The notes under the pieces were generated by a model, which saw nothing but the letters and a program-made list of their open reading frames with translations, did not search any database and had not been told where the DNA came from. A stretch of DNA of 64,000 nt from Cyanophora paradoxa CCMP329. Taxonomy: Eukaryota; Plantae; Glaucophyta. Shown here piece by piece: positions 3,226 to 54,922 of this stretch; the first letter of the stretch is position 1; each line of letters starts with the position of its first letter. The stretch spans positions 1 through 64,000 of the forward strand of contig QPMI01000568.1 of NCBI GenBank assembly GCA_004431415.1, read 5' to 3'. Position numbers and translations under genes: made by a program.

Positions 3226-4763
3226 TCATACACTTCGAATAAATGCACCTGTCACATCCACTCTCATTGTTGGGGTATTTATATATACCAGTGGATAAAT
3301 ACGAATATACCTTGTCCTCAGAGGGTAGCCAATATAGAAAACGTCTTTAATAGAGGTGGGATACCCAGAACTGTATGAGACATCACCACTGTTATGGGCA
3401 TTATTAATTGTTTCACACATGAACACTCTATTCACACCTTCATACTTGATAAATGACCAGGAAACACCATCTTGTGAGGTTGCAACATTGAAGGTCTTAA
3501 CAAAGGCATTGGTCACACCAGACCATATGCAATTATAGATGCTACCTCATATATATATGGGAAGGATACTTGGAGATACTCAGTGGGAACACTCCATATC
3601 CCATCAGGAGCAGATGCATTTGCCTCCCAACCTGTTAAAGAAGGTCTTGCTTTAAATGCCTCCCTTCCAATTTTTGATGATGAAGCAGTGAATGCACCAT
3701 CTGATAGAAGATACCAGTTAGCATCAATGGAGGTATATTATTCAGAGTGGATGATATATAGAACCTTGCAGGGTTCTTGATTTCGTAATTTGCAACCAGT
3801 AAATCACAGAGTCTATCAATCATTACTGTGTTTGCTGCTATATACATTTCGGTTGCATCTATCATATCAGGGATCTTAGAGGTATCATCCAGAGAGTTTA
3901 CTATGGTCTTTGGAAGTGGAACAGAGAGTCTATAATATCTTGCATATCCTTGGTCATCATTATATGGGAGAAACTCTTGCATCTTTTCCAGGGCTGAGAG
4001 TTCACTTGCAGCCATCAACATATTAATTAATGGACTCCCAGAGGTCGAAGCAATCCATGAGAGAATGCCCAGCTGTTGACATCTTCATAGGAATATCCAC
4101 ATTTGGGGCATCTGTTTCATTGACCTCACCACAGGATATACTGATCACAATTATATCATCATCATCATCATAGATCTTTTTAGCATGGCTGTAACCACAT
4201 ACACTGGGATTGTTGTTACCTGATATTGCACCATCAATTAGAGACATCCCATCATAGTTCACAGGTGAGAAGTAAGTTGGTGCAGCAGAGGTGGATCTTG
4301 CAGCAATCTTGCTGGGGATGGATTTGTAGGAGTTATCATTGGTGATAAAAATGGGCTTCATGCTCACAGTGTCAAAACTTGTGATCACTACATCTTTTAG
4401 AGAGTCTTGAATGAGAGACTCACCAGTAACAGTGAGAATGGCTGTCTCCAATGGGGTCACATCATACTTGGTGTTGAAAAGGGCATTATCTATAATATTT
4501 CTGGGATTTGCAAAGATTAATGGAAGTTGATTGAGATATGTTGAATGCAAATCGGTAGCAGTGAGTTTGGGTTCGTTTGGAAATTCGAGATTTTTCACAT
4601 TGAGACCAATCGCAATAATCCCACCAGTGGATGTTCCACTCACCAGGTCAACAAGGTCTATTACTCTTTTTCCAGTTCGAGTTTCGATTTCTTTTAGCAA
4701 TCTCGTAATAATTATACCACGAGCTCCCCCACCTGAGAGACTGAGAATTACACGAAGGGGCAT
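3226..4763 (-). pseudogene. Patatin-like phospholipase fused to an F5/8 type C (discoidin)-like domain, frameshifted
   Basis: LSLSGGGARG, SGTSTGG (GxSxG), RSTSAAPTYF, IDGA; C-terminal TRYIRIYP...MRVDV. Split over three ORFs; homologous to 42056-43611. Confidence 0.85.
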
Positions 4764-4812
4764 CTTTACTTTACTCAAATTTAATAAATCTCTATAAGTA
4801 GAGTAAACAGGG

Positions 4813-7800
4813 ATGAGTTTCAATTATCCAGCAAACCTGCAAACCATTCCTTCATCAGGAAGAGGGAAGGCAGATAACAAACATGTAAATTTCGATAACT
4901 TGACAGCCAGGGGGTCAATCTCAATTGATCACAGTGCAGATGAACCCTCAAAGACTCACCCAAGAGAGCATGCACTTTCAATAAACGAAATGGATCCCGA
5001 AAAGGAGGATGTGAGTGTTGCTTTCAGCATGGGAAATGTGAAATCGAATCAGGTAGCCCAGATTAAAGCAACCAGGAGCAGACCAAGAAAACTGAAAACC
5101 AGTGGAACCCATCCAGATATTCCAACTCGATTCGATAGTGGTAGGTTAATATTCAATGTTCAAAATGAGAAGGGTGGGCATCAGAGTGGTTTGAGAATCT
5201 ATAATGAAGGATCAAATGCAATTGCACAAATTCCCGAAATATTACAGATAGCCCCCCATGGAGAGACCAACAAAATCGAGTTCACTAACAATGTTTATCC
5301 AAGGGATATTGTGGCGAATTCGGCTTCTAATGCACAATTCGGTTTCCAACTACCTGGTGATACAGCAAAGAATAAGGCGTCTATCACTGTCAACAGTAGC
5401 CCCACTCAACCAGTAACAGTTCATTTACACCCAGACCTTGTCGAAATGGATAGGCACCTTTTACCTTTGGTCACCAACACCAAAGATCTTGGTATCAGAA
5501 CCAGGCAATGGCGAAATATCCATGGAAGCAATGTGTATGCAAATGGTGAGAAACTGGTAAGTGAGAAGACCATAAGAGAGATCTTTGAATATTATGGACC
5601 TAATGGACCTGTCCCAGTTCCCTTTCCTCTTCCATGGGATCCACCAGATTTAACACCCAAAAAGCAACCAGGAAGAGAGTATACAGCAGATGAGACAGTT
5701 CCCTTTGGGCAGCACATTGTGAGTTGGGAGCAGGTTCGAAATAAACCGATAATTGAACCAAGAAAGCAAATTGATGAGCAATATTTACCTCCCGAAATCG
5801 ATATATTGGAGCTTGATGATTACTACTTCGTCCCAGATGAGGAGGAATACCTACCAGACGGTTTTGACCCACAGGAATATGAGTATGATCAATATGACCC
5901 CAATGAGGAAGAGTATTTACCAGATGGTTTAGATCCACAAGAGTATGAATATGAGCAGAATTATGAACCCCATGAGGAATATTTAGCAGATGGTCACGAA
6001 CCACCAGTTGTTGATTATGAGCAACCATATGAACCCCATGAAGAATTATTACCAGATGGATTTCGACCTGAGATTTGGGAATTCTTCCCTGATTGGGAGC
6101 AGATCAACAATAAACCAGCCAGATTTCCACCAGAGGATCACAACCATGACTGGGATGAGATCTTAGGTAAACCAGACAAATTCCCACCAGAGGATCACAG
6201 GCATGACTGGGGTGATATTGATGGAAAACCAGAAGAGTTTCCACCAGAAGATCACAGACATAAATGGAGCGAAATAGATGAACAACCAAAATTCGCATCA
6301 GCAGGTGATGATTTCGACACCTTACATGGTGTTACTCTCTACCAAAGTAATATCATACCAGAGAGATTAAGATTAGATGAATATTACCTGAATCTCAAAG
6401 GAATAGATGCAGGAACCAAAATGCAGGGTGAATTATACATCAGACCCCTACAAGGATGCAGATAATTGCAGCAGGCGGAAATTTCGGTTTGATGGACACC
6501 AAACCAGGTATCTATTTAACCAGTTACTATGCAGATGACATCCCAATGACAGGAGGATTGATCTCTCTACCATCTGATCCAGCAAACTATGATGACAAAG
6601 ATGCAGCAATCCAAATTAATGTAACTGATGTGAGTGATTTAGATAGTTCAAGACCCAAATTAATATTCACCAGAGAAAGATTGTTACCCAATGCTCTCAT
6701 TGGAAATCGAGATGACTACAAGAGATGCGAAATCTCATGGATCAAAACGAATTATAATGGTGGAGTTGGTGAGGGAGTCTTAGAAATCAATCAGAGGGCA
6801 GCAGCAAAGAATATTCACAATGACACCATTTCGAGAGTGGTCACAGAGGATTACCTTCAAGCCCAAAACTACATAGATGAAACAGAACTGAATACAATCA
6901 TCGCAGGTATAAATATTGGTGTGACAGGGGATTACCTCCCTCTCACAGGTGGGGTAATTGATGGAACAGTGACAGCATGCAACTTCTTTGTCCACACTGA
7001 AAGCAATCAAACCTTCCCTGTGGTTCACCCAGGAGGTGAGTATGAGATTCCAGATGATCCAGCTATCATGCCCATCAAGATTGATCTACCTTCTGATTAT
7101 GTAGGAAGGGGTGAACTGAAAACCATTTCATTTACAGGAGATTATAATGATCTCATAAATAAACCTACTGCTGCAAATCTGCATCCTGTTGCATTTTCGG
7201 GTAGTTTCCTTGATCTAAATAATAGATCACACACCCACACAAAGGCAGAAATCACAGATTTTGCACACACTCACACCAAATCACAAATTACAGATTTTGC
7301 ACACTTCCACACAAGAGCAGATATCACAAATTTCGCTCACACTCATGTTAAATCAGAGATATTAGATCTCGGAAATGTTGCATATGTGGGTCACACCCAT
7401 ACCAAGGCAGAGATTACAGATCTTGGAAATGTTGCATATGTTGGTCACACCCACACAAAGGCAGAGATTACAGATTTTGCACACACTCATGATTGGAATA
7501 CAGATATCTATAACAAACCTGCAATTTTCTCAGGAAACTACAATGATTTGACCAATAGACCAACTCTTGATCCTTTCACAGCCACCACAATCAGAGCCAA
7601 CAACACAATGTATGTAGGATCAGGTCAGATTGTAGAACCAGCAGGACCTATGTTTGAAGAAACATGGTTCTTCCACAATTCGCAGAATTACTTTGATAAA
7701 ACCTTACTTGTTCGTGGAAATGCCTATGCAAGAAATTTCTATGCTATGAACCCCTCAAATAATGCGACCATCAGTCGATGTATTACAGAGGCAGATCTTT

Positions 7801-8111
7801 CCAGTCAACTCAATGCATATTTTAATGGGAAAATCCAAGCAGGAACGTATGTTTACACTACTCCTTATCTTTGGGCAAATCCTGACCATAGGTTTAACCT
7901 CACTATTAATTTCAACAGCAGCTTTGCTAACCCTCCTATTGTAACAACTGGTATACAACACAATGAGACAGCCTACTACTATCGAATGTATGTTAGGCTT
8001 AAACAAGTTTACAGTAGCTATTTCACTTGTGAGCTTGACATAGTTCCATTAAGTTCTTTTGACAGACCAGGATTTCCAGTTACAATTCATTACATTGCTG
8101 TCGCAATTTAA
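4813..8111 (+). CDS. Large fibre/spike protein (ORFs 4813-6465 and 6456-8111 are probably one frameshifted gene)
   Basis: Both halves align to the single giant ORF of element C. Contains acidic EEYLPDG repeats, PPEDHxHDW repeats, HTHTKAEITDFA phage-fibre-like repeats and a C-terminal H-lectin/gp53-like head. Confidence 0.75.
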
Positions 8112-8130
8112 CTATTTCGTAATTATAAAG

Positions 8131-9153
8131 ATGACCTCCCTTTTAGAGATTCCAAACTATGAACTTGCAGCCAAATCACTCCACAGCACCTCTCATGAAG
8201 TAGTCGACTCCACACCCGGTTTTATTTGCACTGAAACTACAAGTAATACCTCTTTCACAGAGAACAGTATACTGAGGGTCAAAGAAATTCGATGCGATCG
8301 AAATGGAGGCAAGATTAGAACCACAGGCATTATAATCTCGAATACAAATCAGGTTCAAGCAGGTCAAGTAGTCCCAGATTCAGCAGTGTATGATAATGTG
8401 GGTGGATTCACCACAGCACAGATAGTTACTTTTGGAAACACAAGCAATAATTCCGCCCTTGTAGTCAAGAGTGGAGGAGCCTACATTGGTGATGGAGCAA
8501 TTGTGGCGGGGACTGTCACAGCAAATCAATTGAATGTGAGTGGGACAAGTTCATTTGCAGGATTGATGACCTTTAATGGTGGTCTTTCAGGAAATATTCA
8601 GTATGGAACTATCACAGCTACTACAAGAATTAATGCACCTGAGATAGATAATGGTAAAGATTCGAATGTTAATTATAGACGAAATGGAACTACTATTTTT
8701 ACTCTCGAAAAGACAGCAGAAAATATTGAGACATTCAAAATATCGGGCTTTTTAAAACGGAGTGGTTGCCCACGATTTATGGCGACAAAAGCAACAACAG
8801 CCGTTTCATCTACCTTTACCGCCTCAGGTTACATTGTTTCATTTCCAACAGTGTTAGTTAACCAAGGAAATAATTTCGATTCTGCAACAGGAACATTTGT
8901 AGCTCCTATTGAAGGATGCTACCGATTCTTCTTCACAGGAATGCAGTCATCATCTTCATCCGTTTTGATATTATATCGAAATGGTTCAAGCACACTCCTG
9001 TCGACAACCAGTTCGGCAACTGGAACTCACTCCTTTGCATTAGATTGTTTTTTAAATCTTGCACAGAATGATTCAATCCGCATATTTAGTAACACACAAA
9101 TAACATTAAACACAAGGTTCTTATTTGGAGGAATGCTGATAAGTTCAATATAA
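8131..9153 (+). CDS. Fibre-like protein with C-terminal C1q-like domain
   Basis: PRFMA...FPTVLVNQGNNFDSATGTFVAPIEGCYRFFF...LNLAQNDSIRI...FGGMLI; N-terminal module shared with neighbouring genes. Confidence 0.8.
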   Translation: MTSLLEIPNYELAAKSLHSTSHEVVDSTPGFICTETTSNTSFTENSILRVKEIRCDRNGGKIRTTGIIISNTNQVQAGQVVPDSAVYDNVGGFTTAQIVTFGNTSNNSALVVKSGGAYIGDGAIVAGTVTANQLNVSGTSSFAGLMTFNGGLSGNIQYGTITATTRINAPEIDNGKDSNVNYRRNGTTIFTLEKTAENIETFKISGFLKRSGCPRFMATKATTAVSSTFTASGYIVSFPTVLVNQGNNFDSATGTFVAPIEGCYRFFFTGMQSSSSSVLILYRNGSSTLLSTTSSATGTHSFALDCFLNLAQNDSIRIFSNTQITLNTRFLFGGMLISSI

Positions 9154-9175
9154 TATTCGAACTATATTGTAAAGA

Positions 9176-10201
9176 ATGACTACTCAAATAGCTGTTCCTG
9201 TTTTCTGTTATGCTGCACCTAAATTACATCAACTTAACCACACAGTATCAGATGCAACCCCTGGTTTCATATGCACAGAAACAACAGGAGCAGATTCATT
9301 TTCGCAGAATTCAGTTTTAAGATGCAAGGAAATTCGATGTGATCGCAATAATGGGAAAGTAAGAACCACAGGTTTAATAGTTTCAAACAAAAACCAAGTT
9401 CAATCTGGATCGATTGTATCAGATTCAGCAATTTATGATGATGTGGGAGGGTTCACCACACCCAAGATAGTCAATTTCGACAACACTGTTAATAATTCGG
9501 CTCTTGTAGTAAATAGTGGAGGCGCTTACATTGGAGATGGGGCAAGGGTTGATGGAACTCTAACGGCGAACCAGATAAATATAGCTGGAACAAGCACATT
9601 CACAGGTCTTGTTGCAGCAAATGGTGGTATTTATGCACCAAGTCACTCACAACAAATACTGGAAGCATCTACAAAAGTAGTTACACCAGAAGTAGACACT
9701 GGGGCAGATGTAAACCTTCTCTTGAAAAGGAATAGCACTAATATAGCAACTCTTGAACCAAACAGTTTCACAATTAACCAAGGATACTATCTAAAACAAA
9801 ATTCTCAACCACGATTTTGCGCTCAATTAGGATATAATCATACAGCAACAAGCGCCTCCGATTTGATAAACTGGGGAGTTATTTATGTGAATCATCCTAC
9901 AACGCATTTTAATGTTGCTAATGGAAGGTTCACGGCTCCTGTATCAGGACATTACCGATTTTCTGCATTTGCAAGTTCTACTTCAACAAACGCAATTGAA
10001 TTAACTCTTAAAATAAATAATGCCGATCCAAGTGGTGTTGCAATAAACACAATAAACTCAACAACTGTAACAAACAAAACCATTGCACTTAGTTGCATTC
10101 TGTATCTGGCTGTCAATGAATTTGCAACGCTTGTGACAAATGCAAATGGAGGTTATAGTTTGAGAACAACATTCTCAGGTGAGCTTATCAGCATAACATA
10201 A
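9176..10201 (+). CDS. Fibre-like protein with C-terminal C1q-like domain (paralogue)
   Basis: PRFCA...FNVANGRFTAPVSGHYRFS...LYLAVNE...FSGELI; N-terminal ~150 aa highly similar to the preceding gene. Confidence 0.8.
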   Translation: MTTQIAVPVFCYAAPKLHQLNHTVSDATPGFICTETTGADSFSQNSVLRCKEIRCDRNNGKVRTTGLIVSNKNQVQSGSIVSDSAIYDDVGGFTTPKIVNFDNTVNNSALVVNSGGAYIGDGARVDGTLTANQINIAGTSTFTGLVAANGGIYAPSHSQQILEASTKVVTPEVDTGADVNLLLKRNSTNIATLEPNSFTINQGYYLKQNSQPRFCAQLGYNHTATSASDLINWGVIYVNHPTTHFNVANGRFTAPVSGHYRFSAFASSTSTNAIELTLKINNADPSGVAINTINSTTVTNKTIALSCILYLAVNEFATLVTNANGGYSLRTTFSGELISIT

Positions 10202-10222
10202 TTTTCTATTGTAAAAGTAAGA

Positions 10223-10489
10223 ATGTCGAATATATACCAAGTAGTTCTGACTGATACCGAAAAGTTGGGAATGGAATATTGCGCTGCTTCTGTTCAGGAC
10301 TGGATTGATAATGCTGCCCACAATAGGGCAAGAATTGCAATCGATGATATTGTTCAAAAAGAAATTCAATCTTGCATCTCATCAGGAGTTCAAATACCAA
10401 CCTCAAAGGAAGCGATTGTGTTACAGGCATTCCAAAGGGGAACTGTAAAGAAAGGCATAGAGTATAATAATCTCACAGAAGAGCAATAA
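10223..10489 (+). CDS. 88-aa protein resembling small proteins found downstream of C1q fibres in aquatic phages
   Basis: LTDTE..MEY.AAS.QDWIDNA..NRARIA pattern, recognised from memory and not verified. Confidence 0.6.
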   Translation: MSNIYQVVLTDTEKLGMEYCAASVQDWIDNAAHNRARIAIDDIVQKEIQSCISSGVQIPTSKEAIVLQAFQRGTVKKGIEYNNLTEEQ

Positions 10490-10524
10490 ACATTATTTTT
10501 CTTTCCTTCTTAGTAAAAGAAGCA

Positions 10525-11379
10525 ATGGGCGAATATAATCGAGTTCAACTTCCAATATATTCCCTTGGATCCCCAGCAATGCACTTTCGCCAGCATGAAG
10601 TTAATGATGAGGTTCGTGGTTTAGAATCCACAGAGAGACCCAATTCCAATGGTAACTCCTTTGATAAGAATTCGATTATTCGAGTTAAAGAGCTGAGAGC
10701 TGATAAGAACTCAGGTGTGGTGAAAACAACTCGACTCCTGGTCTCAAATGCGAACTTTTTTCAACCTACTAATGGAGGTCCTGATGCTTACAGTGTTGAT
10801 CTGAAAGCCCTTGATTTCGATAAGAATTCTGCTGCTGCTACAATTCGTTCAGGTGGAGCATTTATTGGTGGTGGCTGTCGAGTTTCAGGTCAACTTTCTT
10901 CATCAATTTCGTATAATGATGTCCCAGATACTCTTGAACAGAATGTGGAGAACCCACAACGAATTCGGTTCTATACACCAGTTGCACAGCAACCTTTTCT
11001 GCATTTCTATGTTGCATCATCTGTCACTCTTGAAAATTCAGAGTTGGTTTCCATTACAGGAACTGATCGTGTGAGAAGGAATATTCCTCTTCCCACAGCA
11101 ATGCTCTCAATGTGCAGAGCAAACAACAATCAACCAGGTCACAATTACCTATTCTTTGTTCAAGCATCAAATCATTTCGGTCGGGGATATTGTGTATATA
11201 ACAATTTGACATTTACTTATGATTTGTTTGTCACTGAGGTTGGAGTTTACAATACTATGATTATGGGACTGAGAACAGATATAGCAGCTGTTTCAGCACT
11301 TCGTGGGGTAAACATTGCAGATATCTTCACAACAGGGTTTTACCAGGAACCAGATGTGATTGATAACCCAACCCCATAA
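10525..11379 (+). CDS. Virion-associated protein with shared N-terminal fibre module
   Basis: RVKELRADKNSGVVKTT...SGGAFIG module; orthologue at 34625-35469. Confidence 0.75.
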   Translation: MGEYNRVQLPIYSLGSPAMHFRQHEVNDEVRGLESTERPNSNGNSFDKNSIIRVKELRADKNSGVVKTTRLLVSNANFFQPTNGGPDAYSVDLKALDFDKNSAAATIRSGGAFIGGGCRVSGQLSSSISYNDVPDTLEQNVENPQRIRFYTPVAQQPFLHFYVASSVTLENSELVSITGTDRVRRNIPLPTAMLSMCRANNNQPGHNYLFFVQASNHFGRGYCVYNNLTFTYDLFVTEVGVYNTMIMGLRTDIAAVSALRGVNIADIFTTGFYQEPDVIDNPTP

Positions 11380-11402
11380 ATTATATATCACTTTAATGTA
11401 AA

Positions 11403-12230
11403 ATGGCTGCCCCAGTAGAGCGAATTATTACACCCCAACTATCATTAGCAGCACCTGCAAATCACGTTTTGCAGCATGCTACCTTTGATGATGTAGAAGG
11501 TCTCCAATCCACAGAAGTCCAACCTACCATGAATACTTTTGGTTCAACCCATAAACTGAGATTGCAGGAACTCAGGTGTGATAAAAATAATGGTATAGTT
11601 AAGACAACGAAACTCCTTGTCACAAATGCAAACTTTTCTGCCCATTATGGAGACCCAGACAGTTATGGTGCTCCTCTTTCTACTTATTCTTTTGAATCTC
11701 GGTCGGGAGCTATTAACTGCAAAACGGGGGGAGCATATATTGGTGATGGTCTTCGGATTGGTGGAGCTGTTGGTGCGCCTCTTTTCGTAAATGATCAACC
11801 CAACCCCATTGATCCCAACACCAGAATTCGCACCTATGTCCCCAGTATGAATGCACCATATATTATAAAGATCTTCCCAATTGTTGTGAATGAACAGACA
11901 TCAGTAGTTGATTCTCTTGTTGAGATTGGTGACCACTACAAGGTGGTCGTGGATATTCCACCAGATGTTTATGCTGTCTGTCAAGTAGAGGGTGGAACCC
12001 CAAATATTGCAGTTGTGATCACCCCATATGACAATTTCGGAATCGCTTATCATGGTGTGAATTTCGGTCTTGAAGATTACCAGTTCTTGGTGAGAGCCAC
12101 CAGATTTGGTATCTACAAATGCATTCTCTATGCTGAGAGAACCGATGCTATTGCAAGACAGAATACATATGCAGAGTATTACGGCACAAATCGATACTTC
12201 CCCATTTTCGGGCAGGATACTGCTCCATAG
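11403..12230 (+). CDS. Virion-associated protein with shared N-terminal fibre module
   Basis: LRLQELRCDKNNGIVKTT...GGAYIGDG module; near-identical orthologue at 33768-34601. Confidence 0.8.
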   Translation: MAAPVERIITPQLSLAAPANHVLQHATFDDVEGLQSTEVQPTMNTFGSTHKLRLQELRCDKNNGIVKTTKLLVTNANFSAHYGDPDSYGAPLSTYSFESRSGAINCKTGGAYIGDGLRIGGAVGAPLFVNDQPNPIDPNTRIRTYVPSMNAPYIIKIFPIVVNEQTSVVDSLVEIGDHYKVVVDIPPDVYAVCQVEGGTPNIAVVITPYDNFGIAYHGVNFGLEDYQFLVRATRFGIYKCILYAERTDAIARQNTYAEYYGTNRYFPIFGQDTAP

Positions 12231-12255
12231 AAATCTCAGGTATATATAGAGAGGG

Positions 12256-12528
12256 ATGGATGATAAAACAAAGAAATTTATAGAATCTGCAATGATGGTT
12301 CATGGTGATGCTAAATTCGATTATAGTGAGACAGTCTATAAGAAAGCGCAAGAGAAGGTCTCTGTTAGATGCCTCAAATGCAACAAGATCCTCCAAACCT
12401 ACCCATTTAATCATGTAAGGGGAAGTGGATGCAGAGAGTGCAACAAGAAATCCTCTCATGCTTACAGAAAAAAGACTACATCAGGAATTGTGATAGAGGA
12501 TAAACCAGTAGTATTATATTTCGATTAG
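12256..12528 (+). CDS. Small zinc-ribbon protein (single copy of the homing-endonuclease-associated repeat)
   Basis: FI..A..VHG..FDYS..Y....KV.VRCxxC...H..G.GCxxC; same repeat as in 47069-48001; orthologues in C and D. Confidence 0.75.
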   Translation: MDDKTKKFIESAMMVHGDAKFDYSETVYKKAQEKVSVRCLKCNKILQTYPFNHVRGSGCRECNKKSSHAYRKKTTSGIVIEDKPVVLYFD

Positions 12529-12714: not shown

Positions 12715-13116
12715 ATGAATACTCATCGAGGCTTCCATGTGATGCTGGATTACAAGTTCAGAACCCAATTAGCAGTAGGAATGGAAAACTTGGAGACAAC
12801 AACCAGGTGGTTAATGCAGTTCTTGCAAACTATTATTCAAGAGCAAGGTATTCGAGTAGTTCACAAGCATTGCGAGATTTTCGATGGTGGTATTTCTCCT
12901 CCTGGTTTTGCAATGGTTCTTCTGCTGGATGAGAGCCACTGCACTGCTCATTGTTACTCAAATGAAGGTATGCTGGCGATTGATATATTCAGTTGTGGAT
13001 TAGAAGCAGAGAGAAAAACCACGAGAGTATCTCATGAGATAGATGAGAGAATAACAGGTGTGTTTTCAGGGTTGGAGAAATCGGAGAAACATAGAGTATT
13101 GCGATTTCCGAGTTAG
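12715..13116 (+). CDS. speD: S-adenosylmethionine decarboxylase proenzyme (bacterial class 1B-like)
   Basis: G.H...D at the N-terminus; GFAMVLLLDESHCTAHCY...LAIDIFSCG with the E/S-H pyruvoyl self-cleavage site. Confidence 0.85.
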   Translation: MNTHRGFHVMLDYKFRTQLAVGMENLETTTRWLMQFLQTIIQEQGIRVVHKHCEIFDGGISPPGFAMVLLLDESHCTAHCYSNEGMLAIDIFSCGLEAERKTTRVSHEIDERITGVFSGLEKSEKHRVLRFPS

Positions 13117-13184: not shown

Positions 13185-13612
13185 TATTTAATTGACTGTG
13201 ACGCCTCTTTAATTGACTGTGACGCCTGTGACGCCTGTGACGCCTACTTTCAAACTTTTTAAAATTTTCAAAAATTACAGACTTCTGAAAACAGCCGTCA
13301 CAGCCGTCACAGGCGTCACACCCAATTAACAATGGAATCTCTTTCTCTTACTGAGATTTTCGAAAATATATTCTTGTCTTACTGAAATCCGTCTTGTGAC
13401 ACCTCTGACACCTACAAAACACTATCCATTAATCAACCTTTTTGAAAATGCGAAGTTGTCTTACTGGAAATGGTCTGCAATTTCGCTGTGACACCTAATT
13501 TAATTGAGTGTGACGCCTGTGACGCCTGTGACACCTACTTTCAAACTTTTTAAAATTTTCAAAAATGACAGACTTCTGAAAACAGGCGTCACAGCCGTCA
13601 CAGGCGTCACAG
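13185..13612. repeat. Two duplicated blocks of inverted 9-mer iterons (TGTGACGCC)n ... (GCCGTCACA)n around an AT-rich core
   Basis: Blocks at about 13185-13321 and 13487-13611 share CTACTTTCAAACTTTTTAAAATTTTCAAAAAT. Confidence 0.85.
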
Positions 13613-13732
13613 ACATTCCACCCCTCTTACTGACTTTCTCAAAAACAAAACTATCTCTTACTGAATATCATTTGAATACTACCTGTCACACTTGAATTCA
13701 TTTATTCTGTTTTATAGAACATATGCAATCTA

Positions 13733-13992
13733 ATCGATTGTTCAATTGGAGACCATGCAACTCTGTGACACTTTTTCGGTGCAAAAATGTAAATCCGCAA
13801 TCCCATCGATTGTTTAATTGGAGACCATGCAACTATGTGACACTTTTTGGGTGCAAAAGTGCCCATCCCCATTATAATCGATTGTTTAATTGGAGATAAT
13901 GCAACTCTGTGACAGTTTTTGGGTGCACAAATGCAAATCAGCAATCTCATCGATTGTTTAATTGGACACAATGCAACTCTGTGACACTTTTT
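13733..13992. repeat. Four 72-bp tandem units with core ATCGATTGTTTAATTGGA
   Basis: Cores start at 13733, 13805, 13877 and 13949; homologous to 62589-62949. Confidence 0.9.
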
Positions 13993-14304
13993 GCGTTTTT
14001 CGATACAGAATGGGCGGTGGTCTACTTCAATACCAGAGAGATATATCGAGTTTATGCGAATTTATGCAATTTAATCGCGATTATTTCGTTCTTTAAGTAG
14101 TTTAATGCAAATTAATCGCAGTTATATATGTAATCGACAAAGAACATAATCAATCGATATAAGATCAATTGATTCAATCGTTAATATGCATAAAGTTAAA
14201 CGCGTTTTTCATTTTTAATACAAAGTTTGCATTAATTTATACAAAGTTTGCATAAAAAAGTTAAAGAATTTAATCGATAAATACGTATTTTAGTATTAAT
14301 TTTG

Positions 14305-14399
14305 ACACATATGTATAAACTTATTTAAATCCTGAGTGAATCGAGATCGCGAAGCGATCGAGATGAACGAGGGATTTAAATAAGTTTATACATATGTGT
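14305..14399 (+). other. Terminal fold-back hairpin of element B
   Basis: 28-bp perfect arms (14305-14332 / 14372-14399) enclosing an inner stem with three tandem G.A mismatches and a GCGAAGC apex. Confidence 0.9.
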
Positions 14400-17300
14400 G
14401 CTGTAAATTGGGGTAGCAGTATGGCGGAAGGGGAAGCCCCAGTTGCTCCTGCGCTGCGAAAATGCGGTGCATGATATACGGGAGAAGCAGGGGGTGGTTC
14501 GTGCGGATGGTTTCATCGAGCACGTGAATGGCCAGCTGTTCGTCCTCCGTTCTCTTGAGGCCGTAGAAGCCTCGGCTCCACATGAGCGCGTTGGGCGTGG
14601 ACCCCCTAAGGCGGGCATGATGTTTAGTGAGCGTCATCCAGAGAGTGTCGAGCTGGGCACATTGTCTCTCGGTAAAGGAAACAATCTTGCAGGCGTAAGT
14701 GATGCGAGGGAGAAGGACGCTATTTACTATGTATATCGTCTCTTTGGCGGTGAGTTTCTTACGCCTTAGTATCGCGCAGGCTGCCCGAGCTGTTGAGTAT
14801 ACAGCCTCAAATTGCCGCCGCCAGTCCAGATTTGCTGTCATCCAGACCCCGAGCACCTTGAATGGTTTGTTCGGCGCAAGGACTTTGTCGGCCGGTTCTT
14901 TAGCATCGGGCGGGCCTAGTAGCGGGGCAGACGGGCGTGGGGAGACGTTGTTGTACGTAAATTCGGTTTTCTTCGCGTTGAGGGCAATATCATGTATCCA
15001 GAAGAATTCAGAGGCCAGGTCTGCGTGCAGCTGGATGCCCCGGGCTGTACCGCTAATAAGTACGGTGTCGTCTGCGTATGCTTGCCCCGGCGAGGTCACC
15101 CGAGGCAGGCGCGCTCGCAGGCGTCGGGTGGGCGCGGGCAGGTTAGCGTCAGACGCAGAGGGCGGCGGGCCCATGGAGTATTGGGTGCTCTCCGCAGCGC
15201 TGACTTCGCGTAAAGCCGATAGAAATACGTCATAGAAGATGAGCCAGTGAATTGGGGACTCGGTTCCTCCTTGCGGGAGCCCGCACTCCACATCGAAGGG
15301 GTCAGTTGGGCCGTACCCTGTCGCGACGGACGCTGTACGTGATGTTGATATTTGTCCGTAGAGGCTTATGTACCGTTCGGGAATTTTTAGGCGGCGGAGT
15401 GCCATTTCCATGCTAGACCAGCTGACGCTGTCGTAGGCTCTGCGAATATCTAGCAGTAGCAGATAGATCGGTTTCGAGAATTGTTTTGCGTCCTCCAGTA
15501 GCGCGCGCAGCATGTACAGAGGCTCGTCGGTGGACTTGCCTCGAGTAAAGGCGAAGTTCGCGCCCTGTAATATGTCGTGTTTGCGGAGAACGCGCGAGAG
15601 GCGGTCAGTGAGGACTGCCGTCACGAGTTTCAGCGTGCATTCTTGGAGTGTAATGGGGCGGACATTGTCAGGGTGCCCATCCCATTCCCCGCCCTTGGGG
15701 ATAAGACATATATTTCCGTGAAGAAGGGGCGCAGGGACAGACGAGAGTTTTAGGATCAGATTTACCGTAGTGAGGATTACCTGGCGGCACGTCGGGAACA
15801 GGTTATCGGGTTCTTGGAGCGGCTCCGGGTCCAGGCCCGCCTTGCGTAGTTCTTCGCAAGTTTTCTTTGAAAGGACCGGTGCCGTCCACAGCATTTTTAT
15901 CATTTCGTGGGAAAATCCCGAGGGCCCCGCCGCACCGTTTCGGAGAGAGCCGATGATTCGGTCCAGTTCGGCCTCGCTGGTGGGTTCCATTAGGTACACA
16001 TAAATTGCATCATCAATATCCTGGCGCGGGGAGTGAAGTCGGCGCCATATTGAGGCCTCCTGTGCACATGTACTAAGTGGCAGCGCGCCCGGGTCCCTGT
16101 TCGCTGTGAGTGGGCTACGCTGCCGTGTCCAGGCATGCATGTGATGGCGTGCGAACTGTTTCACTGCATCTTCATTGCCGTATACCTGATATTCTCCAGC
16201 GTGGCAGAGGGAGAAGGAGGTAATCGGCCTGCGTTCTGGGGCTTCAAGTGTTTGGCGGAGGTATTGGGCGAGGTCTGTCTTGAACATGCGCTGCGAGCGC
16301 TCTCGGTTTGCTCTGATTGTCGTGGCTTCGAAACGTTTAATGTGGGCCTGGACTTTGGTGTCCAGGGCCGAGGCCCAAGTGGTGAAGCTTGGAAAATAGT
16401 CGAGCCAGCTTGGTTGTCGGGCAGAGAATGGCGGCGGCACAGGGGGTAGTGGGAGTTTAAGATAGCCTGACCGCTTGTCTATTGGGAGTTTGTCAAGCCG
16501 GCGGTTGTGATTTGAGATTGCCCTGCGCAGGTCAGAGAGGGAGTGCCGTACGCGGCGCGGCGTGGAGTCGATCCCGTGGCGCGCCGCTTCCCATGCCTTG
16601 CGCAGTTCCTGGGCCCTCGTGAGCAGGTTGGATTCGGGGCGGCCGCGGCGGGAGAATTTTTGAGGGATTTTTGGGGGCGTAAAGATGCCAAATACTGGCG
16701 ATTGGCCGAGGTCACAGATGTGGGCGAGAGTGGATTTGAGGGCTTCGTGCAGGCGGGCTAGGCGGTCCTCTGGCGGGGTGCCGTCGTCGTCCTCCAGCGT
16801 TGCGAGTAGCTCTCGTACGCTAGCTGAGGACCCCGGCACCGGCTGCTGTAGCTTTTCTTCCAGTAGTTCTTTGAAGCGAATTTTTGTGAGCGATGCCTGT
16901 GTCGCGTACTTGAAACGCGGGGGGCCGGGCGAAGACGCTGGGGGCCCCAGTTTATATTTGATGGCCAGGGCCCGTTTACTGTACTCTGCAAGGAGTGGGA
17001 AATGGTCCGAGGGGAAAGGGGCGTTTCTAGGCGACGCTTGGGCCGCTCGAAGGGCGTTAGTCGCGACTTGGGATTGTAAGATGTAGTCGAGCCTGGTAGC
17101 ATGGCGGAGCGTGCCATCTGGGGCGATGCCTCGAGGGTTGGGGTTGTCAGGAGCGTCAGGAAATATGAAGGTGATTTGGTCGTCGGTGCCCATGGCTGTG
17201 GCAGCGTCGGAGAGGGTCCAGTCGTGAAGCAGTTCATGCCACCAGCGGTGATCAGGTTCTCGTGTGGTCGCATATTGCCCCTGTCTGATTTTGCCCGTCT

Positions 17301-17920
17301 CGGGACAGAGGCAGCTGTTAAGATCGCCAAGGAGGAAAAAGTGCGCGCGGGGGCGGAGCGCCCAGTCAGCGTACATGGTCGCGCGGAGATAGTCGAAGAT
17401 TTTCGCACTTTCAGTAGACCGCGCCGTCCGACTTTCGCCGGGGGGAGGTACACGCTGGCGATAAAGATCTGAACATTATTTGCAAATCGAAGCTCACAGC
17501 CGGCCACGCGGCCTGGCATTGTGTAGGTCTTAAAACAGTGCTTGGCCATATTTTCTGAGAGAAAAAGGGCTACGCCGGAGCCGCGGGGGAGGCTCGATTT
17601 TGGCGGAGTTTCTTCTGCGAGAGGGGCGGGGTGGGCGGGGCTCGAGCTGGGAGCTCCTGAGCACTAGTTGTGCGCGTGGCCGAGTCGGCGTGCACGGACG
17701 TGAGCATGAGCCCCGATGTCACTGACCTGCGCATCGCTCTGACCGTAGCCTGGGTGCAGTTAAGTGATTGGACCCCTAATACGCTCAGCCCCCAGTCAAG
17801 CATATATTTCTGGATCTGGCCGACATGGTTGACGCTAGAGCAGGTGCGGGCGTTCCAGGTCGCGAGTCTCCAGTACTGGTCAGAGTCAAAGCGGCGGCGT
17901 ATGATACCCGATTTTCGGTG
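14400..17920 (-). mobile_element. Non-LTR retrotransposon (LINE) ORF2: APE endonuclease + reverse transcriptase; 3'-truncated, frameshifted at the 5' end
   Basis: APE motifs LATWNART, FIASVYLPP, LLGDLNS, TRLDYI, SDHFPL; RT motifs RPITL, LLDIRRAYDSV, GLPQGGTESP, AYADD, FKVLG. The 5' boundary is uncertain and may extend to about 18.9 kb. Confidence 0.9.
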
Positions 17921-30369: not shown

Positions 30370-30787
30370 GTCGGTCGGTCTGTAGTGAACCTCACAGTTA
30401 AAACCCCGCATCGCATTAATAGACCTCATCGATAATCAAAGCAATTTACGATCGATTCCTTACCAATGCCCGATAGGAATCGTAAATTGCTCACTTTTCA
30501 TCAACCCTCGATCAAAAACCATGACCCCCTACCTATGCCTCTCATATATATCTATCGACTTTATTGATAAATCACATTTTCTCTCTTTACCCATGACCCC
30601 CTCCCTGTGGTTTTACTGTAAGATTTTATTGTATCTATACGGAAAAAAGGATATACTATATCCTTTTTTAATGATAGATCTACCTTGGGGATATCGAACA
30701 GTATCCATTGTTGAAAAACAAAGGAATCCTTTATTTCCACGAGATACAATAGAATCATACAGTAGAATGTCTATCGTAAAAAATGAC
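30370..30787 (+). repeat. Left terminal inverted repeat of element C
   Basis: Reverse complement of 57850-58256, apart from a few substitutions and a short divergent patch near 30495-30515; internal hairpin at 30441-30490. Confidence 0.95.
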
Positions 30788-31212
30788 CGGAATCCGGAAA
30801 GTAATCATTGTAGAAAGCTATTGTAATAAAAAAGGTAAATTACCCTGATCACCATAATAGAAACCCATCAAAACGGGAATCTATCATGTTTATGTCTCTC
30901 AGTCTTCTCAAATGTTAAGAAATTCATTGTTTTATCGATCTCATCTGCTACTGATTGTGTTTTATGCTGAGCTTCTTTACCACAACTGAATATATCAATT
31001 GCTAACATGCCTTCATTGGAATAACAATGAGCTGTACAATGGCTTTCATCTAATAGCAGAACCAAAGCAAAACCAGGAGGTGATATTTTGCCATCAAATA
31101 TCTCACAATGCTTATGAACAATCCTAATACCTTGTCTCAATACTGCTTGTTCAAGGGTTCCCATAATCCAATTACCTAGGAAGCTAACATGCTCATAACC
31201 TGTTGCTATAGC

Positions 31213-33379
31213 GAGGGGAGAGGGGGGTACGGAAAATTTACGGTAGCGCGACGATTACGGCGGCGCAGCGGGCCAGGTTTCCCACCCGTGGGTTCCTGAT
31301 AACGCTGCGTGTCAAGCTGCTCGGAAAGTCGCGCGCCAGCTCCACCCGACCCCCGTAGCCAGAACGCGCTAGATAGACCAGCCGGGCGTGCACGGACAGC
31401 CGACACGAGCACATCATCACCAATCGCAACCGCCGAAGTCGGTAGCCCGCCCCGGAGCGCCAGGCAGCCCCGCCAACCTCGCCGCGTCATCTTTTTTGAA
31501 TTCCACGGACCCCGGACCCCACCTGCGCCCTGCGCGGAGCGCAAAGCAATCGCCCTGCCTCTCCCGATAGACGATAAGAGCTCTTAAGCAACTGAACTGC
31601 CGCCCAGTCCCGCGCATTGCGCCCCGATGCTGACACTCACTCACTGCCTGTCACACCGCAGACATGAGCCGATCATCCACGGACGACACACCGGATGTCG
31701 CCGCCATGCCCGGCGAACGACGTAGACCGTGCTTGCGCGACGCTCGCCGGCGCCCAGGCCCCGCGGGCCCACGCCCCGCCCCCTTTCCCCGGACTGGGCC
31801 CAAAGGGCGCCCACCTGGACTCCTCCCCCCCGAGGCCGGTACAGAAGCGTGTACGCTCGGACCCCCTGCCCCCCGTCCGCAGTCCGAGCCAGACGAGGCC
31901 CGCCCGGACCCGGCCTTCAAGCCGGCCCCTGCCCTCCCGCTTCAGCGCCCCGCCCCCGCCCTCCGGCTCCAGCGCCCGCCCCGCCCTCCGCTCCAGCGCC
32001 CCGCCCCCGCCCTCCGGCTCCAGCGCCCCGCCCCGCCCCCAGCTCCAGCGCCCCGCCCCCGCCCCAGCTCCAGCGCCCCGCCCCCGCCCCCAGCTCCAGC
32101 GCCCCGCCCCGCCCTCCGCTCCAGCGCCCCGCCCCGCCCCCAGCTCCAGCGCCCCGCCCCCGCCCCCAGCTCCAGCGCCCCGCCCCGCCCTCCGGCTCCA
32201 GCGCCCCGCCCCGCCCTCCGGCTCCAGCGCCCCGCCCCGCCCTCCGGCTCCAGCGCCCCGCCCCCGCCCTCCGGCTCCAGCGCCCGCCCCCGCCCTCCGG
32301 CTCCAGCGCCCCGCCCCCGCCCCCAGCTCCAGCGCCCCGCCCCCGCCCCCAGCTCCAGCGCCCCGCCCCCGCCCTCCGGCTCCAGCGCCCCGCCCCCGCC
32401 CTCCGGCTCCAGCGCCCCGCCCCCGCCCCCAGCTCCAGCGCCCCGCCCCGCCCCCAGCTCCAGCGCCCCGCCCCCGCCCTCCGGCTCCAGCGCCCGCCCC
32501 CGCCCCCAGCTCCAGCGCCCCGCCCCCGCCCCCCAGCTCCAGCGCCCCGCCCCCGCCCTCCGGCTCCAGCGCCCCGCCCCCGCCCCCAGCTCCAGCGCCC
32601 CGCCCCGCCCTCCGGCTCCAGCGCCCCGCCCCCGCCACCCCTCTAAGTGCCCCGCCGCCCTAGCGCCCCGCCGCTCCCTCGCGCCCTTCCCCGTCGCCCC
32701 CAGCGCCCCGCCGCCCCCCCAGTGCCCTTCCCACGTCACCCCTCTCAGCGCCCCGCCGCCCTAGTGCCCCGCTGCTCCCCCGTGCCCTTCCCCCGTCGCC
32801 CCCGGCGCCCCTCCGCCCCCCAGCGCCCTTCCGCCGCCGCTTCCCCAGGGCCCCGCCCCCAGTGCTCCTCCACCCCTTAGCCCCCCGCCCTTTGCCCCGG
32901 CCCCCAGCGCCCCGCCCCCGCCGCCCCCAGCGCCCCGCCCCCGCCGCCCTCTAGCGCCCTGCCCCGACCCTCGGCGCCCCGCCCCGCTCCCGGCCCGTCA
33001 CCCTCCCGCCCGCCCCGCCCCGCCCGCCCCCAGCTCCCCGACCCCAGCGCCTCACCCCCGCCACCCTCCAGCGCTCCGTGTACCCCACTCCCTGCCCTTC
33101 TCCCCCTCCCTACGCCTCGCCCCCGCCGACCCCCAGCACCCCGTGCGCCTCGCCTCCCCCTCCCCCCTCTCTTCCACAGGGCCAAGGACACCAACGCATC
33201 AGGCCCTCCTAAAGCTGTAGATCGATAGCTCACAGCTAGGATAAGATAGCAGGACGTCTTCCTTCTATGCCGCAGAGCATTTGCGCTAGCCTAGGCGCCC
33301 CCCCGGTCGACGTCACCGACGGGGCGGCGGTTGTTGTCCTTAATACGAACATTGCCCGGTTGGGCTTTTGCAAAAAAAA
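31213..33379 (+). mobile_element. Non-autonomous non-LTR retroposon (SINE-like) with GC-rich tandem repeats
   Basis: 16-bp TSD AACCTGTTGCTATAGC (31197-31212, 33380-33395), A-tail, 3' stem-loop GCCC-GGTT-GGGC, no credible ORF. Confidence 0.9.
31920..32640. repeat. GC-rich tandem repeat, ~23-29-bp units with core CTCCAGCGCCCCGCCCC
   Basis: Direct tandem repetition. Confidence 0.9.
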
Positions 33380-33472
33380 AACCTGTTGCTATAGCTGATT
33401 TAGCCTTGTAATCAAGCATAACATGAAAGCCTCTGTATTTAGTCTCCATTAAGAATACCTTAGAAAAATTAA

Positions 33473-33745
33473 CTAGTCAAACCTAATGCAAATATCCCTA
33501 TACTCTACTCTGATTGATGAAGTAGCCCTTTTCCTGTGTGCTTGACTCTTTCTTTTGTTACAGTCCCTACACCCTGATCCCTTCACATGATTAAAGGGAT
33601 ATGTTAGGATCACCTTGTTACATTGCAAACATCTAACAGATACTTTCTCTTGAGCTTTGATGTAATGTGTCTCACTGTAATCGAATTTATCTTTACCATG
33701 GACTGTCATAGCAGCATCAATAAACTTTTTTGTTTTAGTATCCAT
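33473..33745 (-). CDS. Small zinc-ribbon protein
   Basis: Orthologue of 12256-12528. Confidence 0.75.
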   Translation of the reverse strand: MDTKTKKFIDAAMTVHGKDKFDYSETHYIKAQEKVSVRCLQCNKVILTYPFNHVKGSGCRDCNKRKSQAHRKRATSSIRVEYRDICIRFD

Positions 33746-33767
33746 ACTCTATATATACCCAATATTC

Positions 33768-34601
33768 TTATGGAGCAGTATCCTGCCCAAAAATGGGGAA
33801 ATATCGATTTGTCCCATAGTACTCAGCATAGGTATTCTGCTTTGCAATAAAATCGGTTCTCTCAGCATATAATACACACTTGTAGATGCCAAACTTGGTG
33901 GCTCTAACCAGAAACTGATAGTCTTCCAAACCGAAATTGACTCCATGATAAGCAATACCAAAATTATCATATGGGGTGATCACAACAGCAAAATTAGGAG
34001 TTCCACCCTCTACTTGACAAAGAGCATAAACATCTGGTGGGATATCCACAACTACCTTGTAGTGGTCACCAATTTCAACAAGAGAGTCTACTACTGCTGT
34101 TTGTTCATTCACAACAATTGGGAATATTTTTATTATATAGGGGGCATTCATGCTGGGGACATAGGTTCGAATTCTTGTGTTGGGATCAATGGGATTGGGT
34201 TGATCATTCACAAATAGAGGCGCTCCAACAGCCCCACCAACCCTAAGACCATCACCAATATAAGCTCCCCCCGATTTGCAGTTAATAGCTCCCGACCTAG
34301 ATTCAAAAGAATAAGTAGAAAGAGGATCTCCATAGCTATCTGGGTCTCCATAATGAGCAGAAAAGTTTGCATTGGTAACAAGTAGCTTAGTTGTCTTAAC
34401 TATTCCATTATTTTTATCACATCTGAGTTCCTGTAATCTCAGTTTATGGGTGGAACCAAAGGTGTTCATTGTAGGTTGGACCTCTGTCGATTGGAGACCC
34501 TCTACATCATCAAAGGTAGCATGCTGTAGAACATGGTTTGCTGGGGCAGCTAATGATAGCTGTGGTGTAATAATTCGTTCAAGTGGGGGTTGCTCAGCCA
34601 T
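33768..34601 (-). CDS. Virion-associated protein with shared N-terminal fibre module
   Basis: Near-identical to 11403-12230. Confidence 0.8.
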   Translation of the reverse strand: MAEQPPLERIITPQLSLAAPANHVLQHATFDDVEGLQSTEVQPTMNTFGSTHKLRLQELRCDKNNGIVKTTKLLVTNANFSAHYGDPDSYGDPLSTYSFESRSGAINCKSGGAYIGDGLRVGGAVGAPLFVNDQPNPIDPNTRIRTYVPSMNAPYIIKIFPIVVNEQTAVVDSLVEIGDHYKVVVDIPPDVYALCQVEGGTPNFAVVITPYDNFGIAYHGVNFGLEDYQFLVRATKFGIYKCVLYAERTDFIAKQNTYAEYYGTNRYFPIFGQDTAP

Positions 34602-34624
34602 TTTACATTAAAGGGATATATCTT

Positions 34625-35469
34625 TTATGGGGTTGGGTCATCAATAATATCTGGTTCCGAATAAAACCCTGTTTGAGAAAGAGTATCAGGAGTTACACCT
34701 CTAAGAGCTGATACAGCGGCTATATCTGTTCTCAAACCGATAAGAGTTATAGTATATAACCCAATATCTGTAACAAACAAGTCAAAGGTGAAATTATTAT
34801 TATAAACACAGTAGCCATAACCGAAATGATTATATCCCTGAACATTGAAATAGTATTTATGACCTACTTGATTGTTGTTGGCTCTACAAAGGGAAAGCAT
34901 TGCAGATGGAATCGCAAGACCTCTCAGTACTCTTTTGGTTCCTTCAATTAATTCCGAGTTTTCAAGAGTAACAGTATATCCAATGTAAAATTGAATTAAT
35001 GGCTGCTGTGCAACAGGAGTATATAATCGAATTCGTTGGGGGTCTTCCACATTTTGCTCTAGAGTATCTGGGACATCATTATACGAAATGGAGGATGAGA
35101 GTTGACCTGACACTCTGCAACCTCCCCAATAAATGCTCCTCCTGATCTCACAGTAACAGCAGCAGTATTCTTGTCGAAATCTAGGGCTTTCAGGGCAACA
35201 CTGTAAGCATCAGGACCTCCATTTGTAGGCTGGAAGAAGTTAGCATTGGTGACAAGAAGTCGAGTTGTTTTAACCACACCAGAATTCTTATCAGCTCTCA
35301 GCTCTTTTACTCGAATAATCGAATTTTTATCAAAGGAGTTACCATTGGAATTGGGTCTCTCTGTGGATTCTAAACCACGAACCTCATCATTTACTTCATG
35401 CTGGCGAAAATGCATTGCAGGGGATCCAAGGGAATATATAGGCAGTTGAACTCGATTATATTCACCCAT
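34625..35469 (-). CDS. Virion-associated protein (one frameshift near 35120)
   Basis: Orthologue of 10525-11379; N-terminal half near-identical, C-terminal half diverged. Confidence 0.75.
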
Positions 35470-35518
35470 TGCTTCTTTTACTAAGAAGGAAAGAAAAATA
35501 ATGCGAAATATGCATTTA

Positions 35519-41500: not shown

Positions 41501-42012
41501 ATTTCTTGCAAAGTCATATGTAATATCCTTGGGGTAGACATCATTTGTGTAGGAGACCTGATTTGTATTGGCAATGGGACCCACTTGCAATACTTGGGGA
41601 CCTCAGCTTTTGCAGTGCTGCCCTCATTGTAAATTCGTAAAGCTGTGTTCTGTTTGCCCTGCTCATCTTGAACATTGAAAATCAATCGACCACTATCGAA
41701 CCTGGAAGGTATATCTGGGTGAGTGCCACTGGTTTTCAGTTTCCTAGGTCTCCTTCTGGTGGCTTTGATCTCTGCCACTTGGTTTGCTTTCACATTACCC
41801 AAACTAAAAGCAACACTGACATCCTCTTTATCTGGATCGGTTTGATTCACAGATAAAGCATGCTCCCTTGATTGAGTCTTTGATGAATTATCAGAGCTGT
41901 GGTCAATTGAAACTGAACCCTTTACTTTAATATTATCAAAGTTCACATGCTTGGTGCTGCTTGCATTATCATCTTGAATGGTTTCTAGATTGGGTGGGTA
42001 ATTGAAGCTCAT
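35519..42012 (-). CDS. Giant fibre/spike protein (~2160 aa; one frameshift near 41595) with duplicated LamG/ConA-like domains
   Basis: Homologous to 4813-8111, plus two copies of a domain ending FIGD(V/I)AEYI(V/I)FNRAL..EEKQRVRYYIQDYYG, TSNx repeats and HTH repeats. Confidence 0.8.
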
Positions 42013-42055
42013 GGCTTTTACTATATGGATTTATAAAATTCCTGATAAGTAAAAG

Positions 42056-44533: not shown

Positions 44534-44562
44534 TTTAATATATAAATATAGATAAAAGAAGA

Positions 44563-45573: not shown

Positions 45574-45626
45574 ATTAAGGATCATTGGTAGATTTTTTAT
45601 GTTGCAGTATAATAAAAGAGAATATA

Positions 45627-46996: not shown

Positions 46997-47068
46997 ATTG
47001 TTACGATATATCGTAAGGCATTTAAGGAAAAAGTGATTATTTATTTTTGAAAACATTTAAAAAGTCAA

Positions 47069-48001: not shown

Positions 48002-48057
48002 ACCATATTCAGTCACCTTGCATTATTTTTATCTGTTTCTTTATAGAAAGATACACA

Positions 48058-48852: not shown

Positions 48853-48880
48853 AATTATCTCTCATTCTAATAAAGATACA

Positions 48881-49615: not shown

Positions 49616-49637
49616 TTTTCTCTGTTTTATTAGAGAC

Positions 49638-49910
49638 ATGGATATAATACGAAAGTTTATTGAGATGCTCAGTCTGCATGTGGTGAGCAATTGCCACAGT
49701 GGATGCTGTGACACAACAATAGAGTTTGAGATGTCAGATACTGAGGATAATGCCTCAGAAGCAAGAGAGAGAAGGAGATCAACAGTTTCTGTGGAGTCAA
49801 TGCCAGCAGACCCCACAGAGTATACATATGAGCAACAGGAGTATCCAAGGAGAAGTTCTCTGCCAGCAGAAAACGTTTTCTCTGGGAATATAAATGGAGG
49901 ACACTATTAG
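49638..49910 (+). CDS. Hypothetical protein
   Basis: 90-aa ORF with SNCHSGCC, tightly packed with its neighbours. Confidence 0.5.
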   Translation: MDIIRKFIEMLSLHVVSNCHSGCCDTTIEFEMSDTEDNASEARERRRSTVSVESMPADPTEYTYEQQEYPRRSSLPAENVFSGNINGGHY

Positions 49911-54904: not shown

Positions 54905-54922
54905 AATTTGTATAGTTATAGG

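Follow-up and report, generated by a model that had tools for sequence, protein, structure and literature searches.

Conserved tandem G.A mismatches on one strand of a terminal hairpin in integrated PLV elements of Cyanophora paradoxa

The 64,000-nt stretch of Cyanophora paradoxa DNA analysed here (hereafter the window) contains viral elements, which we label A to D, embedded in host DNA (Table 1). Viral GC content is ~40%, against 58–85% in the host DNA, and the boundary is sharp, as expected for endogenous Polinton-like viruses (PLVs). The genes of element B are partly 72–83% identical, at the DNA level, to those of element C. PTR plus H-lectin has been reported in one PLV from Cyanophora, and a fusion of patatin to F5/8 in PLVs from groups of which glaucophytes are one; the same study recorded AdoMet decarboxylase in 66 of the 156 glaucophyte PLVs of its Table S6 (PMC12220804). 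Elements B and D are collinear over ~1.9 kb, sharing, in order, a zinc-finger gene, the AdoMet decarboxylase-like gene, repeat arrays, a common 72-bp repeat, an AT-rich stretch and a hairpin. Their visible parts contain only the arm genes shared with C; the window includes no capsid, ATPase, polymerase or integrase gene of B and not its other end, and D leaves the window at position 64000.

Table 1 Features of the window (positions in the 64,000-nt stretch)
Feature	Positions	Strand	Basis
Other element B genes: patatin, fibre-like PTR/H-lectin and C1q proteins, zinc finger	3235..12528		
Element B AdoMet decarboxylase-like gene, the last before the end of B; also in D and, interrupted, in C	12715..13116	+	
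Two internal palindromes of 9-bp repeats (13209-13329 and 13509-13611), mixed mismatches, no GA tandem; internal control	13209..13611		
72-bp tandem repeats, 3.7 copies	13725..13993	+	
AT-rich stretch ahead of the hairpin, 24% GC over 250 nt, repeated AATCG	14055..14304	+	
PLV element B terminal hairpin, 95 nt	14305..14399	+	symmetric pairing; junction from contigs
Host LINE reverse-transcriptase frame, cut at the junction, continuing to a stop within the hairpin arm	14400..17376	-	protein scan, contigs
Comparison element C, nearly whole PLV: arm genes as in B/D, plain 424-bp TIR (96%) ending GTCGGTCGG/CCGACCGAC, no hairpin	30370..58256		
PLV element D terminal hairpin, 107 nt: 28-bp arms, T.G, five 5'-GA/AG tandems, one C.A, GCGAAGC tip	62117..62223	-	pairing table
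Element D subterminal region: AT-rich stretch (14% GC over 250 nt), 72-bp-family repeats, 21-bp repeats, palindrome 63212-63303 without GA tandems	62224..63353	-	
Element D AdoMet decarboxylase-like gene, 75% identical to that of B	63354..63752	-	

Between the last gene and the hairpin, the core of the 72-bp repeat is common to B and D (93% over 89 columns at 13941–14031). We infer that these repeats are iteron-like and that the AT-rich stretch of element B would suit an unwinding region. The internal palindromes of both subterminal regions consist of inward-facing 9–10-bp repeats around an AT-rich centre, with repeat words that differ between B and D, and they look like putative subtype-specific protein-binding sites.

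Elements A and C, which carry PolB-type genes, end in short direct repeats without a hairpin. Element C encodes an rve integrase, an A32 ATPase, a capsid-like protein and a 1380-aa PolB-like protein fused to an SF1 helicase, and it has no obvious target-site duplication. Its capsid-like gene is split over two frames (45585–46996); the label rests on position and on the relative P0001, with no match in Pfam. The protein has one close relative (56%), a EukProt protein of Cyanophora paradoxa, and is very isolated, with 6 proteins, including the query P0001, at E ≤ 0.001 among 1.84 billion representatives. Taken with the gene content described above, this relative makes a glaucophyte host likely. 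A capsid profile was detected in only 2 of the 156 glaucophyte PLVs (PMC12220804, Table S6). The AdoMet decarboxylase gene of C is split by a 2.2-kb GC-rich insertion (31200–33395) with an A-run and a flanking direct repeat of ~15 bp. The end of element A (1–2864) contains frameshifted polymerase-like and rve genes and two repeat arrays; it shares the CCGACCGAC terminus with C, their TIRs being otherwise unlike. The elements with visible integrases in the window carry rve.

Symmetric pairing of the element B end gave 28 Watson–Crick pairs (14305–14332 with 14372–14399), followed directly inside by a T.G at 14333/14371 and by three tandem 5'-GA/AG mismatches, at 14334–35/14369–70, 14338–39/14365–66 and 14343–44/14360–61, which are spaced by 2 and 3 pairs. 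The tip is a 6-bp inner stem with a GAA loop, GCGAAGC occupying 14349–14355. The pairing table thus bears out what a first-pass annotation of this DNA had described, namely a perfect 28-bp arm pair (28/28 Watson–Crick) whose interior departs from Watson–Crick pairing in one G.T and three GA/AG tandems only. The apposition just outside, 14304/14400, is G.G, and the outermost pair of the hairpin contains the final base of the element.

The position of the hairpin relative to host DNA was checked with contigs from four public sequencing runs of one organism, of which 32 of 793 pieces were listed. In 4/4 runs, an 869-nt LINE contig has its match to the window start exactly at 14400 and carries 154 different letters on the other side of that point. 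Since the match starts exactly at 14400, the junction lies at 14399/14400, so that the hairpin sits exactly at the virus/host junction, as first annotated; over the 100 nt on each side, GC content is 33% on the element side and 57% on the host side. Contig depth just beyond the junction equals that of the LINE contig alone, no contig among the 32 of 793 pieces listed bridges 14399/14400, and the insertion of element B may be strain-specific. Variant contigs, for their part, span the hairpin in 4/4 runs. The hairpin type is therefore independently confirmed in the runs, while the single insertion at 14399/14400 has no bridging contig among those listed. A third arm variant was found among the contig loose ends, and a third tip variant, with GA steps ahead of GCGAAGC, forms a loose end in at least 2 of the 4 runs; it is represented by its 5' half, whose predicted pairing is consistent with the hairpin design.

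The end of element D, located by BLAST of the element B end against the window, bears a second hairpin of the same construction. Two further pairs are possible outside its arm, placing the end possibly at 62115–62117. Both hairpins combine a 28-bp arm with the T.G and the GCGAAGC tip, and their first GA tandems stand in register; in both, the GA strand is the strand that ends 3' at the junction, so that the 3' placement first noted for B extends to D. The fold is terminal and not internal, again as first claimed, B ending at the last paired base and D within two bases of it. This host therefore harbours two end types on the same viral arm, an arrangement that fits the swappable end module proposed elsewhere (PMC11296320).

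The arms of B and D are 79% identical. Six of the 28 outer-arm positions differ, yet all pairs are still Watson–Crick, as copying of one arm on the other would produce; because such copying yields compensatory changes free, we left them out as evidence of covariation. Between B and D, identity in the shared gene block is 80%, and this equal divergence indicates that the hairpin evolves with the virus. Across the two hairpins, 16 of 19 non-Watson–Crick positions fall within tandems and all tandems (8/8) have the 5'-GA orientation, whereas the window's remaining six long palindromes, of which three lie in these subterminal regions, contain no GA/AG tandem. When a perfect hairpin was decayed in a model by as many random substitutions as were observed, the actual tandem counts were reached in 0/300,000 runs for B and 0/300,000 for D; shuffles of the inner part that kept its composition reached them in 141/200,000 cases for B and 1/200,000 for D. 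Owing to the shared ancestry of B and D, these null-model results are not independent tests, and a uniform-null value of 2e-10 treats the two copies as independent although they are kin. The tandems of D are nevertheless more numerous and differently spaced, which indicates that the design was rebuilt and not merely inherited; the GA tandems seen in B were thus both kept and multiplied, to five, in a diverged copy. A conserved, strand-asymmetric G.A design argues for function, and we conclude that the hairpin is real, terminal and under selection.

The same observations bear on whether the hairpin is an accidental snap-back repair product or an assembly artefact. A preprint raises accidental annealing for palindromes of this kind (bioRxiv 10.64898/2026.07.28.741278), and the unbridged junction could be read in the same way. 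Such events, however, would give perfect arms or random mismatches and not 8/8 oriented GA tandems in two diverged copies, and variant contigs cover the hairpin in every run; we consider this origin extremely improbable, and the oriented tandems together with the contig cover in 4/4 runs largely refute it.

How strongly the two strands differ in folding depends on the part of the structure considered. The 28-bp outer arm can fold on both strands, and the strand-specific part is the inner third only, where the complement would bear TC/CT tandems and a TTC loop. A DNA energy model gave –32.5 kcal/mol for the GA strand and –30.6 kcal/mol for its complement. Nearest-neighbour DNA folding in ViennaRNA separated the strands by only 1.9 and 2.7 kcal/mol in the two copies, and ViennaRNA DNA energies did not resolve the strand difference. 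Folding energy models do not explain the GCGAAGC mini-hairpin, which melts at 76.5 °C and resists nucleases, against 39 °C for its RNA tetraloop counterpart, and hairpins with a TTC loop are nuclease-sensitive (PMC13037366); GA-AG tandem steps stack strongly in DNA (PMC8163305). The earlier proposal that one strand is selected to fold thus stands for the tandems, which are kept and lie on the 3' strand in both copies, but does not extend to the outer arm, which folds on either strand. A single-stranded step is the simplest reason for the GA strand being at the 3' end and for the retention of the tandems.

It is also conceivable, though very improbable, that the structure acts as RNA, ending or processing read-through transcripts. 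RNA often contains tandem GA pairs, the last genes have the GA strand as their sense strand and, folded as RNA, this strand is 8.6 and 10.6 kcal/mol better than its complement in the two copies. Against this, the hairpin lies 1.2 kb past the last stop codon and exactly at the DNA end, and the mini-hairpin is a speciality of DNA, as the melting temperatures above illustrate (PMC13037366). No known RNA family was recognised: of the 18 weak Rfam matches in 13000–14600, none reached the gathering score.

We propose that the hairpin is the terminus of an integrated PLV subtype whose 3' strand self-primes by fold-back, without a terminal protein, a reading that commands about half of our confidence. 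The 3'-end base of the GA strand is paired and faces an internal template, forming, by sequence geometry, a primer–template junction; by that geometry alone, B and D possess the 3'-terminal hairpin with a paired 3' base that marks the parvovirus type. After excision or strand displacement the end would become single-stranded and the GA strand would snap back into a stable rod, whose paired 3'-OH would then be extended, copying the genome without a terminal protein. The complementary 5' end, folding worse in its inner part, would remain duplex or serve as template. The mismatches would keep the two strands different, giving the end an orientation, and the mismatched integrated duplex may extrude as a cruciform less readily than a perfect palindrome would. 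Because simple nick-and-copy resolution inverts the hairpin in each round, an extra step must be assumed: GA could be kept on the 3' strand over many rounds through asymmetric resolution of a head-to-head junction, comparable to that of the minute virus of mice left end.

That virus offers a close parallel. Its left (3') end is likewise a 3'-terminal fold-back with a G/A mismatch asymmetry (PMC1185569, PMC8242256), its dimer junction is resolved asymmetrically (PMC1185569), and some parvovirus ends occur in one orientation only (PMC1185569, PMC8242256). Parvoviruses differ in being small ssDNA viruses with an HUH nickase, Y-shaped ends and a bubble that acts as a spacer (PMC1185569, PMC8242256), whereas B and D are PLV-type elements whose end is a simple rod with three to five paired tandems and whose visible parts contain no nickase.

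As for the enzymes, our guess is a D5-type primase-helicase module acting with an rve integrase. Among the 156 glaucophyte PLVs of Table S6, rve was found in 85, D5_N in 40, pPolB in 49 and a tyrosine recombinase in none (PMC12220804). The visible parts of B and D contain no replication, nicking or integration gene, and the window holds neither another end nor a target-site duplication for them; no HUH nickase or SF3 helicase was found among the 30 window proteins scanned, B and D being incomplete.

A poxvirus-style telomere, covalently closed, existing in flip and flop forms, and nicked and copied before integration, would be a different source of the same end, its mismatches serving packaging or protein binding. 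In a closed end, perfect outer arms with fully compensated changes arise automatically. The vaccinia terminal hairpin is also incompletely paired and continues a perfect stem, and its mismatches are essential for virion maturation, structure counting for more than sequence (PMC8956199). One contig, moreover, ends exactly where the perfect arm ends (14332), which is the branch point that flip and flop would make, though the third variant would make it too. However, flip is the complement of flop, so that a form with GA tandems has a counterpart with TC tandems and a TTC loop, and one would not expect selection to favour the most stable mismatch on a single strand. Both copies (2/2) are in the GA orientation, an agreement with a chance of 1 in 2 under 50:50 flip and flop for copies that are, besides, related by descent, and no strand-changing joint, as a fold-back molecule would give, occurs among the contigs listed for the four runs, in which rare forms are dropped. 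The small number of copies behind the orientation and the lack of a listed fold-back joint weigh against self-priming as well. Vaccinia further differs in having two complementary forms, in needing loops and extrahelical bases for maturation and in not being integrated, and the abstract of that study makes no mention of a GA bias (PMC8956199). On balance a closed telomere seems unlikely. Since the GA tandems mark orientation, counts of GA and TC ends would separate a parvovirus-like from a poxvirus-like mechanism.

Alternatively, the hairpin could be a 3' overhang that folds to cap the end and draws in an end-patching protein or a primase, which would recognise it without extending it, with replication starting from the subterminal repeats. 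Lagging-strand synthesis leaves a 3' strand, which here is the GA strand, a single orientation would be kept without any extra step, and the repeats and the AT-rich stretch lie just inside the hairpin. Precedents come from Streptomyces, where the telomeric 3' overhangs bind Tap and form hairpins with sheared G.A closing pairs (PMC4513846), and from G4-type phages, in which mini-hairpins mark primase sites (PMC13037366). But Streptomyces telomeres are bacterial, with several short palindromes and Tap/Tpg terminal-protein priming (PMC4513846), whereas B and D each present one long rod; its 28-bp arm would bury the very end that needs copying, which would have to be reopened, and the visible parts contain no candidate protein. 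We therefore judge a capping overhang to be decidedly unlikely.

A substrate on which a tyrosine recombinase or HUH enzyme would act as a folded single strand, or a Helentron- or Crypton-like 3' end attached to a viral arm, appears more doubtful still and is, in our view, quite improbable. The arm genes of B and D recur in element C beside a different end, which makes ends exchangeable. HUH genes were left out of the Table S6 screen (PMC12220804), and a host or unseen enzyme is conceivable. Helentrons (Helitron-like elements group 2, HLE2) likewise have a stem-loop close to their 3' end and pass through a single-strand step, but they have 11–18-nt TIRs and insert between T and T (PMC11417382), neither of which is seen in B or D: T-T and A-T insertion sites are absent, as is a CTRR end, the first flanking letters are GC (B) and AA (D), the hairpin reaches right up to the end, and the longest upstream inverted matches, of 10 and 11 nt, are AT-rich and unshared by B and D. 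A Helentron/HLE2 end was rejected on the flanks and the length of these matches. This reading is further opposed by the in-step divergence of hairpin and genes and by the gene surveys, with no tyrosine recombinase among the 30 window proteins scanned and 0/156, against 85/156 for rve, in glaucophyte PLVs (PMC12220804). From the list of candidates first drawn up for this end, self-priming fits best, and integration of the attC or CTX type is disfavoured by the rve of the visible integrases and the 0/156 count.

Palindromic ends as such are not new for these viruses, and the initial view that a hairpin terminus would be unusual for a PLV was not borne out in that form: terminal palindromes next to target-site duplications were described for endogenous virophages of Halocafeteria seosinensis (subtypes 1, 2, 5 and 6) and for PLV subtype 4 in that species, with the same priming model (bioRxiv 10.64898/2026.07.28.741278). 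In that report, palindromic PLV and virophage ends go with non-pPolB replication genes, and hairpin priming is proposed with accidental annealing left open. B and D resemble these elements in being integrated, of PLV type and tipped by a palindrome at the extremity beside host DNA, and in this host, as in Halocafeteria, palindrome-ended types coexist with hairpin-less pPolB types. The Halocafeteria example, though, is a 52-nt palindrome, whereas the ends of B and D measure 95 and 107 nt and conserve GA tandems on one strand. The main text of the preprint does not use the words mismatch, imperfect or flip, and its sequences may hold similar mismatches. Judging from the pairing tables, B and D would escape its screen, which tolerated 4 mismatches and a gap of 10 nt; this suggests that standard palindrome screens overlook this class of end. 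We found no description of a one-strand G.A design at PLV or virophage ends in literature covered mostly at the level of titles and abstracts, outside subscription journals. What is new is thus the conserved strand-asymmetric G.A design, palindromic PLV ends with a proposed priming role being known. The sole report of palindromic ends that we found could not tell function from accident (bioRxiv 10.64898/2026.07.28.741278); G.A tandems conserved on one strand bear the mark of selection acting on a folded single strand, which accident would not leave. The hairpin thereby bears on two questions, how ends are copied in PLVs without a protein-primed polymerase and how integrated copies exit.

Taken further, self-priming would imply an integrating double-jelly-roll virus lineage that dropped protein priming for a parvovirus-like rolling hairpin that keeps its orientation, with a G.A zipper folding only the 3' strand, particles possibly containing nicked-hairpin or single-stranded genomes, and a junction resolvase of an undescribed, asymmetric kind. 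We offer this fuller scenario tentatively and consider it rather unlikely.

Searches for relatives of the design by DNA pattern returned 2, 117, 82 and 1 matches in IMG/VR and 8 in JGI metagenomes, none with long arms or similarity to the window; one script check of the loci re-found the pattern in 88/90. Short GA-zipper hairpins do occur in unrelated viral contigs: in 4 of the 117 matches all five spacer pairs are complementary, against 0.11 expected. The GA-zipper is therefore a recurrent device for folded single strands and, as the same design appears in unrelated settings, the design alone does not name the process. The short hairpins of the IMG/VR loci L017, L035, L048 and L098, on unrelated contigs, combine two GA/AG tandems with a GCGAAGC tip; the L017 contig is 5.6 kb long. 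An integrase search among phage records gave no match, and protein-guided locus searches returned either nothing or single loci, L210 and L211, with no terminal hairpin in the parts examined. Both lie on virophage- or PLV-like IMG/VR contigs and, with labels assigned by eye, L210 has a primase-helicase-like gene beside an AdoMet decarboxylase-like gene, and L211 a related rve integrase together with a packaging-ATPase-like gene.
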